Below, piece by piece: positions 10,101 to 19,100 of a stretch of DNA of 20,000 nt. The notes under the pieces were generated by a model. It worked only from the letters and a program-made list of their open reading frames with translations. It did not search any database and was not told the DNA's origin. A program made the translations under genes and the position numbers. Source of the stretch: Deltaproteobacteria bacterium (lineage in GTDB: Bacteria > JAGRBM01 > JAHCIT01). The stretch is from contig JAHCIT010000006.1 of assembly GCA_026129095.1 (NCBI GenBank), forward strand, positions 44,235-64,234, given 5' to 3'. The stretch's first letter is position 1, and each line of letters starts with the position of its first letter.

Positions 10101-13100
10101 TAGCCATCCCAGAGGCCGTCGAAATCGCTATCCGGCTCGTTTGGATCGGTACCGGGATCGGTCGCGCCGCCCCAGATGCCCGTGGCGCGTTCGATGAAAT
10201 CAGAGAGTCCGTCACCATCCGAATCCTGGTTGCCCGGATCGGTGCCGGTATCGGTCGAACTCACCCAGATGCCGGTGTTGGTTTCGTACGCGTCCGGGAT
10301 GCCGTCGCTGTCCGTATCCAGATAGCCCGCCGTGAAGGGGACCGTGTTCGAGTTCCACTCCGCCTCAACCAGATAGGTCGCCGGGTAGGTGACATCCAGT
10401 GTCAGGTAGATGGAACTCAGGCCGTCGCTGTCCGTGTAGTCAGGGATCGGTGCGCCCAGTATGCCCTCACCCAGGTTCGTCCAGGTAACCAGTTCGCCCG
10501 CGACACCGTTGCCAAACGCATCTGTCACGCGGACCACAAACGGGTCATCAAGTGTCAGGCCCGGATCGCCCGTCTGTGCGTCTCCGCCCACATAGGTGAC
10601 GTTCGACGCAGGACCCGGATTGACGTTCACCATGTAATCTGGCGGATCAAACGTAAGGCCCGGCACGCTCAGCTCGACGTTCTTGCTTCCGGACACCGTC
10701 ATGGAAATATCGTCAAAAGTGGCTTCGCCGTTTGTCGTGGGTTGCGTGACCGTGCCGTTCAGGCTGCCGGTTCCGCTGGTCAGTTCAACCGTGACGTCCA
10801 GGCCGTTGGTCGTGGACTGGTTGCCGTACTGGTCGGTGACCACACCCGTGAAGGTCGCCCAGTCTCCTCCGGCAGTTTCCGTGGGTGACGGGAACGTGCC
10901 GAACCGGACATAGGCGTCGGCACCTGGGGTCACGTCGAACGGATTGGAGATGGCCAGATCAAGCGGCGGGCTGGACGTCGCCAGCAGGGTGTAACCCGAT
11001 GCTGCAATATCCACGTGTGTATTCAGGAAGAAAACAAAACCGCCAGTAACAGTCTTCGGATTGATCGTCGTACTCAGGACAGCCATTCCACCCGTAGGAT
11101 CGTAATCGAAGGCCAGCGTCACCTCTGTCGAATAGTCATCAGCCACCAGGTTGCCATGCTGGTCATGCACCTGGACCGCCACTGACTGGCTCTGGTCAGC
11201 CGTGCGGCTGATGGGACCGGAGGTGAACGCCAGCCGGGCCGGTGCGCCGGGCGTGACATCGAACAGATTGGAGTCGTCATATGCCAGTCCCGGCGATGTC
11301 ACCCTCAGCATGTAGTTCGACCCCACCTTGTCCAGATGGACCTGGTTGAAGACGGCGAGGCCGTTCGTCGCGAACACCGGATTTGTCCCGGCTGAAAGCG
11401 TTGCAGCACCGGGGTTCCATTCGATCGCCAGCGTCACGAGCGGCGGCGGCGGATTACCGGAGCCGCCAAGGTCCACGGCGGGCAGGTTGTCGCCCATTGT
11501 GCCGCCTGTTCCACCCCGACCGATCACATCGCCAAGGCCAAGCTGACCCCAAGCATTGTGACCCCAGCATTTGAGATCGTGATTATCCAATATGGCGCAA
11601 TTACTCGAAAAACCCGATGCAAGGGCAAGAGCCGTCCGGCCGGACCCCAGATTCACCGCCGGAAGGTTATCGCCCATTTGACCAGGCGCATTACCGCGGG
11701 TTGTCGTATTACCAAGGCCCAGTTGGCCGGAGGCATTATCGCCCCAGCATTTCACGCTCCCGTTATCCAGCAAGACGCAGGTGTGGGAGCCCGAAACGGC
11801 AAGTCCTGTCACTGTCCTGCCAGTGCCAAGGCTAACCACTGGCAGGTTGTCACCCATTTCGCCAGGTCCGTCACCACGAGTGACGGTATCCTCAAGTCCA
11901 AGCTGCCCAGAAGGAGACCGGCCCCAGCACTTCAGATTCCCATCGTTAAGCAGGGCGCAACTGTGATCCTGTCCCGCGCCTACAGCAATCGCGGTCTTCC
12001 CGGCACCAAGGTCTACTGCGGGAAGATTGTCGCCCATTTCGCCGGGCCCGTCGCCACGATTGTCAGTATCGCCAAGACCGAGCTGGCCATAAAGGTTTAT
12101 GCCCCAGCACTTGACCTGTCCGTTGTCCAGCAGGGCACAGGTATGATTGGTGCCCAGTGCGACATCAACAACAGTCCGGCCAGTCCCCAGATTTACCGCA
12201 GGCAGGCTGTCGCCCATGTGTGCAGGCGATGAACCGCGCTGTCCTGCATCGCCCAGCCCTAGCTGGCCGGACCCATTTGTCCCCCAGCATTTTAGGCTCT
12301 TGTCGTTCATCACGGCACATGTATGGCCGGCATTGGAAGGTCCGGCCGCAATCTTCACCGCCGTAAGCCCGGTCCCCAAATTCACGAATGGCAGCGCATC
12401 GCCCATATGGGCAGGACTCGTACCCCGGTGCGTCGTGTCCCCCAGACCGAGACGGCCCTGATTGTTCGTGCCCCAGCATTTGACAGTTCCATCAACAAAC
12501 AAAACACACGAGTAGTCGGAACCAATGGCCGATTGCATAGCGGCCAATCCGGTTCCCAGATCCACGCCAGGCAGGTTATCGCCCATCTGGCCAGGACTAC
12601 CACCTCGGTTCACTGAATCACCAAGCCCCAGCGCACCATTGGTATTGTGGCCCCAGCACTTGAGTGAATGATCACTCATTACCGCACAGGTTCTAACACC
12701 GCTTCCGCCTCCAGAAACCGCCACCTGCACCGGCATCGGGCGGAACGGACCCGTCACATCGTTCCCGTAGGCATCCCGTACCTGGGCGCTGACCATCTGG
12801 GTGTCGTCGGCCGTGACCGTGATTGGCTGCTGGACAACGGCGAGTGCCGCCGGATCGCCCGGCGTGATGTCGAATGGATCGGAATCCGCCGTTCCGTAAG
12901 CGGGGACCGAGGACGCCCGCAGCGTGTAGCCAGACGACACCTTGTCCACCCACAGGCCGGTAAACTGGGCCACGCCGCCGGAAGCGGTCACGGGGTCGAA
13001 ATCGTAGGAGAGCGTCGCGCCCACCGGGTTGTTCATCAGTGTGAGCGAAACCTGGGTCGAGCTGTCCGAAAGCACCGTGTTCCCGTAGTCGTCATGAATC

Positions 13101-16100: not shown

Positions 16101-19100
16101 GTGACCTTGATGGATATCCCCTCGGCCACTTCATAACTGATGTCCGTGAAGTCCACGACGCCCGCGGTGGCGATACCGGATGTGGTCCCGGTCAGGTTGC
16201 TGATGCCTGAGTCCAGTTCCAGCAGGACCGTTGCCGTCGAGAAGATGCCGGTCGTGACCGTGTTGCCGTACGCGTCCTGGATCGCCGCGCTGAAACTGTC
16301 CCAGGTGACGCCCGCCGTGATCGGACCCATCTGGCCGGGGGCCGGAGCGACAAACCCGACCTGCGCGGCCGCGCCGTGGGTTATGTTGAACAGGTCCGAG
16401 TCGGCATCGGTCAGGCCCGGCGAGGTCACCCGCAGCCGGTAGCCGGAAGCCACCCTGTCCAGATGGACCTGGTTGAAGACGGCGAGGCCGTTCGTCGCGG
16501 GAACCGGATTTGTCTCGGCTGAAAGCGTCGAGCCGCCCGGGTTGTCTTGTAGAACCAGGGTAATGGCGGGAGCCGGAATACCCGTACCGCCAAGGTCCAC
16601 GGCGGGCAGGTTGTCGCCCATCTCACCGGGCTGGTCGCCGCGATGGGCAGTATCACCGAGGCCCAGCTGGCCATTGGCGTTTGCACCCCAGCATTTCACA
16701 TTGAAATTGTCGAGAATTGCACAGCTGGAGGCCGTATGCGCTGCCAATTTAGTCACTGTCCGGCCCGTGCCGAGGTCCAGGACAGGAAGGCTATCACCCA
16801 TCTCCCCAGGACCGTCACCACGGTCCACCATATCCCCAAGACCAAGCTGGCCATTGGTATTGTAACCCCAGCATTTTGTGGTCACATCATCAAGAACTGC
16901 GCAGGTATGGTAATAGCCCAATGACAGATGGGTAGCCGTTCGGCCGGCACCCAAATTCACGGATGGGAGACTGTCACCCATCTCACCAGGCCCATCACCT
17001 CGATTTGCCGTATCCCCAAGCCCCAGTTGTCCAGAGCTGTTCCACCCCCAGCATTTTACATCTCCGTTGTCGAGTATTGCGCAGGTATGACTTTGACCTG
17101 CCACCAGACTGATCGCAGTCCGGCCTGTGCCGAGAGACACGACCGGCAGATTATCACCCATCTCGCCACCGTTATCGCCCCGATGGGCCGTGTCGCCTAG
17201 ACCCAACTGGCCGTTAGTGTTGTTACCCCAGCACTTGACAGTCTGATTATCGAGAAGTGCGCAGGTATGGTATTGGCCTGCCACCAGACTGATCGCAGTC
17301 CGGCCTGTGCCGAGAACTACAGTGGGGAGGCTATCTCCCATTTCCCCCGGCCCAATTCCGCGATCCACCGTATCTCCGAGACCAAGCTGGCCATTTCCAG
17401 CTTCTCCCCAGCACTTGACAGTCTGATTATCGAGAAGTGCACAGGTATGATAGCTGCCCGCCGCCAGATCCATTGCAGTTCGGCCCGTTCCAAGATCAAC
17501 CGCGGGGAGATTGTCACTCATCTCGCCAGGGCCATCACCTCTGGTCACAAAATCACCGAGTCCCAACTGGCCGAAGCTGTTATTTCCCCAGCATTTAAGG
17601 GCCCCGTTATCGAGTATCGCGCAGGTATGATCGCTACCGGAAGCAAGCTTGATCGCAGTCCGGCCTGTACCTAGAGACACGGTCGGGAGATTATCACCCA
17701 TCTCGCCACCGTTATCGCCCCGGTGGGCCGTGTCGCCCAGACCCAGCTGGCCGTTAGTGTTGTAACCCCAGCACTTGACGTTGCCGTTACTGAGAAGGAC
17801 GCAATAGCGGTGAAAACCCGCCGCCACCTGCACCGGCACCGGCCGGAACGGACCGGTCACGTCGTTCCCGTAGGCGTCCTGAACCTGGGCGCTGACCATC
17901 TGGGTGTCGTCGGCCGTGACCGTGATTGGCTGCTGGACAAAGGCAAGCTGGGCCGGATCGCCTACCGTGATGTCGAACGCGGCGGAGCTCATCGTCCGCG
18001 GACCCTGCTGGGCCTGGAGAACCTTCGAGCCGACAATGGCGATGTTCAGGCTGTCCCCAGGCACCCAGGAGGCAATGCCCGCCGACGGCGCCTTGGTAAC
18101 GGTGCCTGACAGCACACCCGAACCGCTCCAGAGCGACAGGGTGATGTCGGCCACCGCATCCGGGCCGGTCGTGACCGTGTTGCCATAGCCATCACGCACC
18201 TCGACCACCGGCAGGAGCGGCGATCCGGCCTGCGTGGTTACCGGCTGCGTCGTGAAGACGAGCGCCGATGCCGCGCCGTGGGTAATGTCAAAGTAGTCCG
18301 ACGAGGCAGGCGTGAGCGGCGGAGATGAAAGTGCTTCCAGCGCGTATCCGGTAAATGCCTTGTCAATATGGACGCTGGAGAACACCGCTATGCCCGCCGA
18401 AACCGTCACCGGATTTACCGCCACATCCAGCGTGGCCGCGCCGCCGCTCGGATCGATATCGAACCCCAGCGTGATCTCGGTCGCAAAGTCGGTATCCACA
18501 AGGTTGTCATGGAAGTCCCGGACCTCCACTTCCACGCTCTGGCTCTGGTCGGTCGTGCGGTTGCCCGGCTGGGTGACGAACGCCATCCGGTCCGGAACAC
18601 CGGGAGTGATGTCGAAGGGATCGGTTACATCACTTCCGAGACCGGAAGCCGTTGCTTCCAGCGTGTATCCGGAGCCTGTCCTGTTCAGTGCCACCGAGAC
18701 GAAGGTCGCGCTGCCGCCCGTGGCCATCACCGGATTGGCGGACACACTGAGAGTTGAGCCGCCCGGATTGTCGAAGATGGCGAGGGTGATTTCGGTCGTG
18801 TTGTCCGAGGAAGCCAGGTTGCCGTACCCGTCCCGCACCTCGACCGTGAGGGACTGGGAGTTGTCCGTCGAGCGATTAACAGGCTGTGAGAAGAAGACCA
18901 GGTGATCGGCCGCGCCGTGCGTGATATCGAAAGAACCCGATGTCGCGGGCAGCAGCAGCGGCGGCACCGCATCGGCGCGCAGGGTGTAACCCACGCCCGC
19001 CTTATCCAGCCGGACATCAACAAAATCCACCAGACCGGCATCCGCCGTTTCCGGATTGACAATCACCGAGAGCGAGGACGCACCGGGGTTATCCTGGATT

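Follow-up and report, generated by a model that had tools for sequence, protein, structure and literature searches.

Nesting of one domain inside another is known from Gram-positive pilus tip adhesins such as RrgA, in which a vWA domain is nested in Ig-like domains. In fibrillar adhesins of the RTX type, immunoglobulin (Ig)-like "split domains" project ligand-binding domains sideways, as reported for AhLap of Aeromonas hydrophila (PMC12077191) and FrhA of Vibrio cholerae (PMC10865825), and a survey preprint gives CBM, vWFA, PBD and beta-roll domains as guests, which leave their host after its first strand or before its last two (10.1101/2025.09.30.679566). Split domains have thus recently become a structural rule for locating the binding heads of giant adhesins. 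To our knowledge, published examples are so far limited to RTX adhesins secreted by the type I route, with CBM, vWFA or PBD guests. Here we analyze a stretch of 20,000 nucleotides (the window) from contig JAHCIT010000006.1 of a Deltaproteobacteria bacterium (assembly GCA_026129095.1), the whole of which lies inside a single minus-strand open reading frame (ORF) and reads as 6,666 stop-free codons of a giant protein, apparently a fibre. Three of its Ig-like repeats are each interrupted by a seven-bladed RCC1 propeller, and the locus extends the split-domain rule to a different setting: a non-RTX fibre, a large and mostly unannotated Ig family, a different loop and an RCC1 guest.

The resemblance to the RTX adhesins is that a beta-sandwich extender is broken by a whole autonomous domain whose ends are adjacent, the host being completed afterwards, and that several split units occur per protein with ordinary extenders between them. 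Unlike in those adhesins, the guest is an RCC1 propeller (neither "propeller" nor "RCC1" is used in 10.1101/2025.09.30.679566) and leaves after strand 2 of 7, the host belongs to a different Ig family, and the split units are placed in the final third of the stalk array instead of a distal ligand-binding region; there is also no RTX beta-roll or type I secretion system (T1SS) signal, and the N-terminus is of the signal-plus-Cys kind. No RTX or HemolysinCabind family was matched by any of the four pieces of the protein scanned with Pfam (E≤0.01 or 0.001), nor were T1SS genes present among the six neighbouring ORFs scanned, and judged in this way the giant fibre protein is not an RTX adhesin. 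We found no description of an RCC1 propeller in a split Ig repeat in the literature, where the supplements of the RTX papers may list further guests. Adhesins of the RrgA type differ from the window protein in guest, host family, anchoring (sortase) and taxon.

A hidden Markov model (HMM) profile of the Ig-like repeat, made from 12 intact repeats of the window, matched the full protein at 40 places, 34 of them complete repeats and six of them half-repeats, which correspond to 37 repeats of ~106 aa each. Repeat starts of the FDIT type follow each other at 105-108 aa, but three intervals measure 529, 530 and 537 aa. The six half matches are complementary (Table 1), with N-halves of 41-42 residues and HMM-matched C-halves of 56-58 residues (1145-1202, 2104-2159 and 2855-2911), and profile positions 42-47 alone, a turn of 5-6 residues reading D(S/N)TT., are replaced by the insert. 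The insertion site is between strands 2 and 3 of the seven, at position 41 of 105. An earlier note on this DNA had proposed that three RCC1 propellers are inserted into the same loop of an Ig-like repeat, and the complementary halves bear this out; the bounds given there (~16570-17850, ~13690-14980 and ~11435-12750) proved to be only a few bases off, the domain insertion put at ~420 aa was found to be slightly longer (Table 1), and the motifs quoted, GPFRP[VM]P, the exit DLGG.G...P and NGLAVFNQVHLD, are all present. The in silico deletion of the RCC1 segment that it had suggested was carried out in an equivalent form, without joining the halves: these match complementary parts of the profile, and MAFFT, unaided, aligned nine intact repeats across the ~430-aa insert, placing the N-half at columns 1-44 and the C-half at 479-544. 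Compared with the best intact repeats, the split halves show 55-58% identity, to which N-halves (0.54-0.59) and C-halves (0.55-0.58) contribute equally, the median identity among the 34 intact repeats being 0.39. In silico, then, the two Ig halves are one host domain interrupted by the propeller.

Table 1. Features of the window and contigs of other studies that bridge the insert junctions. Positions are those of the window; residues are counted within the window (full-protein residue - 2461).
Feature	Positions	Strand	Details
Giant gene, part in window	2..19999	-	full ORF G000:C20:41689-71616, 9,976 codons stop to stop
Six intact Ig-like repeats, upstream of split repeat 1	17978..19891	-	HMM, profile 1-103/105
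Split Ig repeat 1, N-half (strands 1-2)	17855..17977	-	residues 675-715; profile 1-41, independent E-value (i-E) 7e-14
Insert 1: linker GPFRPVP, 7-blade RCC1 and Pro-rich exit	16568..17854	-	residues 716-1144, 429 aa
Split Ig repeat 1, C-half (strands 3-7)	16391..16567	-	residues 1145-1203; profile 47-104, i-E 3e-19
Run of four intact Ig-like repeats separating split repeats 1 and 2	15107..16390	-	HMM
Split Ig repeat 2, N-half	14984..15106	-	residues 1632-1672; profile 1-41, i-E 1.4e-13
Insert 2: RCC1 propeller	13691..14983	-	residues 1673-2103, 431 aa; AlphaFold2 (AF2) model m48a2d5c5f391
Split Ig repeat 2, C-half	13517..13690	-	residues 2104-2161; profile 48-103, i-E 1e-15
Pair of intact Ig-like repeats separating split repeats 2 and 3	12875..13516	-	HMM; 13193-13516 modelled
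Split Ig repeat 3, N-half	12749..12874	-	residues 2376-2417; profile 1-42, i-E 1e-12
Insert 3: RCC1 propeller	11438..12748	-	residues 2418-2854, 437 aa
Split Ig repeat 3, C-half	11264..11437	-	residues 2855-2912; profile 48-104, i-E 2.5e-17
Two Ig-like repeats following split repeat 3, end of array	10634..11263	-	HMM
Fourth RCC1 propeller	1625..2911	-	WD40_RLD 193.7 bits; in line between TSP3-type Ca-binding repeats, outside any Ig repeat
Junction-bridging contigs X4	12171-12801, 13591-14222, 14869-15242		0 differences
Junction-bridging contigs X5, X7	X5 14822-15124; X7 16470-16701		0 differences

The guests are RCC1 domains of seven blades, as had been proposed. In every insert, seven blades anchored by CWG follow each other at a period of 60 aa, with one spacing of 63, and Pfam families were matched far above their cut-offs in window residues 1-3333 (WD40_RLD PF25390, 573.2 bits, cut-off 150; RCC1_2 PF13540, 496.3, cut-off 22; RCC1 PF00415, 292.9, cut-off 21.7). 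The AF2 model of the whole 530-aa unit 2 (mean per-residue confidence, pLDDT, 71.4; global score, pTM, 0.73) contains seven repeated three-strand units. Its range 44-465 matches UVR8 (8gqe_B) with Z 40.6 and a root-mean-square deviation (rmsd) of 2.6 over 360 aligned residues, Foldseek matched it to 6dd7_A with E 4e-25 and TMt 0.85, and the matches listed in the fold search with this model were all propellers. With respect to the blade register, the first strand (VPVQVAAG; "VP.QV..G") replaces "TAxxLAxG", and the last blade ends at "DLGG.G" where the others read "DLGTGR". The register at both ends therefore places the cut in the propeller ring at a single point, and according to the model the guest is a complete autonomous domain with adjacent N- and C-termini. 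The linkers are indeed short and Pro-rich, with seven residues at the entry (GPFRP[VM]P) and 5-6 residues including 3-4 Pro at the exit, but the "DLGG.G" that the earlier note had counted as exit linker is the end of blade 7. The 21 blades differ from one another mostly at a handful of loop sites (ahead of H.C, following CWG and within DT..R). An RGD tripeptide recurs in the conserved blade loop "DT..RGDGPGEMGD", of which inserts 1-3 have 6, 6 and 2 copies and the fourth, in-line propeller has 6; it is probably structural.

The host fold was modelled on the intact repeat at 13193-13516, for which AF2 gave a seven-strand Ig-like sandwich (strands 8-15, 28-34, 47-54, 62-64, 76-79, 83-85 and 92-98) with pLDDT 87.9 and pTM 0.81. 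Its closest fold match is the C-terminal Ig-like domain of a GH2 glycosidase (3gm8_A, Z 10.7, rmsd 2.4, 99 of 108 residues aligned), followed by the adhesin domains of InvE (5n40_A, Z 8.9), intimin D00-D0 (6tqd_A, Z 8.4) and FdeC (Z 7.6); the best Foldseek match had E 1.6e-3 and TMq 0.67, with nothing at E≤1e-3. Pfam matched few of the 14 repeats scanned, in all cases below the gathering score (Big_1 in one, best E 0.0018; Invasin_D3 in two, 0.013; GH2_C5 in one, 0.12), while homologs of the repeat carry precomputed matches to PF18565, PF09134 and PF02369.

The earlier note expected AlphaFold to build one Ig fold from the discontinuous halves. In an equivalent form of this check, the halves of unit 2 (residues 1-44 and 470-530) were given as two chains and were predicted as one domain, with interface scores (ipSAE) of 0.90, 0.89 and 0.90, the highest of three controls reaching 0.02; since the alignment rows were intact repeats, this denotes compatibility with the intact fold and is not a measurement. 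Among solved complexes 58 of 80 attained this mark, and among mismatched pairs 2 of 110, counts that are rough since our own alignment was used. At least 98% of the contacts agreed between runs and the partner pLDDT was at least 95; in the model, residues 25-30 (strand 2) pair with 500-506, residues 10-13 (strand 1) pair with 518-526, and the entry residues 39-44 touch the exit residues 470-475. When the full 530-aa unit was modelled, pLDDT was 68-84 in the N-half and 83-87 in the C-half. These results bear on the possibility that the flanking half-repeats are degenerate and do not co-fold, the chain then being beads on a string (half-domain, propeller, half-domain). The low AF2 confidence of the exit region would fit such a structure, as would the indirect basis for co-folding in the full unit. 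Against it stand the identity of the halves to intact repeats (0.55-0.58, with a median of 0.39 among the intact ones), the co-folding scores, the pLDDT of 68-87 that the halves retain in the full model and their ratio of non-synonymous to synonymous divergence (dN/dS) of 0.29-0.41, and we hold it to be highly improbable.

Near-identical sequence was found in sequencing runs of several studies, with shares of 0.97-0.98 (X1-X3), 0.73 (X4) and 0.69 (X5); the runs with the highest shares may come from the source sample. The habitat labels of the runs with this sequence are activated sludge, biofilm and soil. Contigs from X4, X5 and X7, which belong to three other studies, span five insert junction sites with 0 differences (Table 1). 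In a highly repetitive gene from a 23-contig assembly, misjoining of RCC1 sequence into the repeat array could come to mind, but the three copies differ by 27-32% in DNA, the frame is unbroken over all 9,976 codons and the five junction sites are bridged in those other studies without a difference, all of which makes a chimera of this kind scarcely conceivable; the split-module sequence is not an assembly artefact. One X7 contig joins position 11468 to 13722 and so skips 2,253 nt, that is 751 codons or exactly one module period. The skipped segment comprises a C-half, two repeats, an N-half and a propeller, the breakpoint lies within the exits ("DLGG"), which are homologous, and from one position to the other the X7 depth is near zero. 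The X7 population carries a two-module allele where the window genome has three modules, and this deletion of one module period points to strain-level variation in head number. The interval 13243-13696, uncovered in X5, and the parts uncovered in X18, an RNA library, were excluded as evidence. A joint 17965->15095 in X18 has 35 letters common to both sides and equals the spacing of modules 1 and 2; it is probably a repeat artefact and was discarded. Contigs of X5 and X7 also show a joint that goes back 2047 positions (13246->11200) and is cut off by the end of the stretch compared; it might represent another structural variant of the array.

From all this we think it likely that the gene encodes a giant exported fibre in which three split-Ig repeats carry side-mounted propeller heads, most probably for the multivalent binding of an external ligand. 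The protein starts with a hydrophobic, signal-like segment that ends in ..AAPGC, probably a signal or lipoprotein signal, and the fibre would accordingly be exported and probably lipid-anchored. Along the stalk of 37 Ig-like repeats, the chain would three times lay down strands 1-2 of an Ig domain, exit through the 7-residue Pro-rich linker, fold a complete seven-bladed RCC1 propeller whose start and end are adjacent on the blade ring, return through the Pro-rich linker of 5-6 residues and complete strands 3-7; the stalk would stay continuous, with the three heads projecting sideways. By analogy with the guests of RTX split domains, these heads may bind, in a multivalent manner, a glycan or protein on other cells or in a matrix; the surface location of the fibre is likewise presumed, as is any binding function or ligand of its heads. 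Solved extracellular propellers of RCC1-like type are found among the fold matches (BLIP-II, 3qhy_B, Z 23.0; plant CR4 ectodomain, 7a0k_A, Z 26.0), as are lectins (CV39L, 6gxs_A, Z 20.3; PLL, 5c9o_A, Z 17.9). All of these, including ACR4 (7a0j), are seven-bladed and extracellular and bind protein or sugar, but they are free-standing or N-terminal and not nested, and an identity of 6-27% is too low for a ligand to be transferred from them. The locus points to RCC1 propellers as candidate extracellular binding heads in bacteria.

With the same anatomy, the heads could instead make fibre-fibre or fibre-envelope contacts, cross-linking a surface layer (S-layer) or matrix laterally, or simply space the stalk. 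The extreme uniformity of the blades within and between heads could suit a self-ligand, the stalk repeat matches the S-layer proteins SbsC (4uid_B, Z 7.1) and Sap (8s80_A, Z 7.0), with 4uid_A as its best sequence match (E 0.025), and the protein has many other putative binding modules (FG-GAP, beta-helix). The variation in head copy number between strains and the variable loops fit an outward-facing, diversifying function somewhat better, and we consider self-contact unlikely, though the first of the alternatives to be kept in mind.

Several points weigh against the proposal of an exported fibre with side-mounted heads. The lipobox is non-canonical (A-P-G-C). The co-folding result may in part reflect likeness to intact Ig domains, AF2 confidence is <50 across residues 432-467, exit included, and co-folding of the halves within the full 530-aa chain, the sideways projection of the heads and the rigidity of the linkers are points that we infer from the models. 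In favour of the gene being transcribed, a contig of the RNA library X18 spans the junction of insert 1 with its N-half (17775-17928, 0 differences), which is a weak hint, as RNA libraries can contain DNA. As for other genomes, full-length matches to the 1-530 unit were obtained only in the window's own genome among the 41 searched. The ortholog G001:C17:3-28982, from another genus of the same family (9,660 codons, cut by the contig end), is collinear with 36-41% identity in and outside the array and keeps the in-line RCC1 propeller (residues 8513-8924), but its 45 Ig repeats are all intact and none holds a propeller. Two more genomes are uninformative about the array, G002 having only the C-terminal 4,284 aa of an ortholog (contig C38) and G003 being fragmentary (570 contigs, 83% complete). 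RCC1 was inside an Ig repeat in none of the 261 proteins of the Ig family retrieved. Searching giant proteins with the 530-aa unit gave 429 matches, of which the best 120 cover 60-87% of the query, namely the RCC1 part, and none of these 120 has an Ig repeat. Pattern scans for the junctions also yielded no second case: 0 of the 80 genome-contig loci listed for the N-junction have an Ig repeat beside the propeller, one pattern there being generic for RCC1, and none of the 169 (N-half) and 155 (C-half) pattern matches in metagenome contigs was confirmed, in scans that may exclude records of the window's own or very near genomes. With no second protein found to have a propeller in a split Ig repeat, cross-species conservation is unusable as support. 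Lastly, the proportion of synonymous differences (pS) in the Ig halves is 0.33-0.36, half that of the propellers, and this is unexplained by a single insertion followed by whole-module duplication; the discrepancy suggests that the sockets have undergone gene conversion or that heads have been exchanged.

The confinement of the arrangement to one genome among everything searched, in a gene that clearly undergoes unequal recombination, could mean that the insertions are tolerated recombination passengers of a repeat-rich gene with no function of their own. Yet all three copies keep open frames, seven blades of perfect period and both Ig halves, near-identical sequence is kept in several metagenomes of different studies, and dN/dS between the propellers is 0.13-0.16 with synonymous sites nearly saturated (pS 0.66-0.76). 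These values indicate that the propeller heads are under purifying selection, and make passengers very unlikely.

The history of the modules can be read in part from their DNA. Module 1 and module 2 are 73.5% identical over 1,957 aligned columns, the preceding repeat included, and modules 2 and 3 are 68.2% identical over 1,968 columns, the following repeat included; whole modules are thus homologous and collinear at the DNA level, and their flanks differ. The N-halves of modules 1 and 3 stand out, with 89.8% identity over 157 nt and ~67% in the rest. Among themselves the split repeats are 78-90% (N-halves) and 66-82% (C-halves) identical, while their identity to any intact repeat, of the same protein or of the G001 ortholog, is at most 58%, and the socket therefore has a single origin. 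The sockets seem to be much younger or more homogenised than the heads (pS ~0.35 against 0.66-0.76), a pattern that would arise where sockets become homogenised and heads either stay distinct or are exchanged. Propellers of the inserts share 60-68% identity with each other, 50-56% with the fourth, in-line propeller and 48-55% with those of P0002 and P0003, labelled Bradymonadia. A maximum-likelihood tree of 13 propellers, in which 7 of 10 inner branches are open, points to no particular donor. The change may have been a gain in the window genome or a loss in G001, as unequal crossover can remove whole modules. The locus offers a natural experiment, with three diverged heads in near-identical sockets, an ortholog with 45 unbroken repeats and an allele with one module fewer. 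Tentatively, and with more doubt than conviction, we suggest that socket and head together could form a self-contained cassette, added, removed and maybe refilled by unequal recombination, and that this could be a general and repeatedly invented way for non-RTX fibres to vary head valency or specificity between strains.

The Ig repeat belongs to a large family: at E≤1e-3 it matches 20,611 representative proteins, and at E≤1e-30 there are 3,794. Among homologs that carry a label, those that match best are from Myxococcota, Gemmatimonadota and Bradymonadia. Eight of the 261 family members retrieved (P0151, P0152, P0196, P0204, P0205, P0254, P0255 and P0326) also contain RCC1. They share the repeat family (20-90 bits per repeat), but unlike in the window protein their propeller always comes after the final repeat, and all of their repeats are unbroken. 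Going by these sequences, an Ig array with an RCC1 head is a recurrent pairing. Split repeats with other guests occur in two further family members: P0268 has one insert of 79 aa, and P0280 has three guests of 229-251 aa within residues 1516-2802 that match DUF6923/DUF4394. In P0280 the same Ig family is split three times, as here, but at profile ~59-65, in a different loop and by a non-RCC1 guest, so the family serves as split host elsewhere too. In the genome of the window, the Ig repeat is present in one other giant gene, C12:277630-288126 (minus), and RCC1 is confined to the window gene. That other gene has 3,499 codons, a signal-plus-Cys N-terminus and 26 Ig repeats, none holding RCC1, and its C-terminal region is rich in "..DGR.VVF.S.A..L" repeats.

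After the Ig array, Pfam identified TSP3-type calcium repeats, FG-GAP repeats, the fourth RCC1 propeller and a NosD/beta-helix region in the giant protein, whose C-terminal 848 aa matched no Pfam family. Residues 3384-3755 and 3813-4183 (window positions 8735-9850 and 7451-8563, minus strand) are two paralogous modules of ~370 aa, each with ~7-8 short repeats of the type "..G.FVVAW.S...DG...GI.AR.F...G.P...E..VN"; they had no Pfam match at E≤0.01 and may be an unannotated family of propeller-like repeats. The neighbouring genes are of the housekeeping kind and code for radical SAM/B12, topoisomerase VI B, thiolase, acyl-CoA dehydrogenase and GMC oxidoreductase proteins. The gene for topoisomerase VI subunit B (L001:9267-11105, minus strand, G000:C20, ~9 kb past the start of the giant gene; Topo-VIb_trans, E 1.6e-58) sits in a genome that is marked as bacterial by its gene content.

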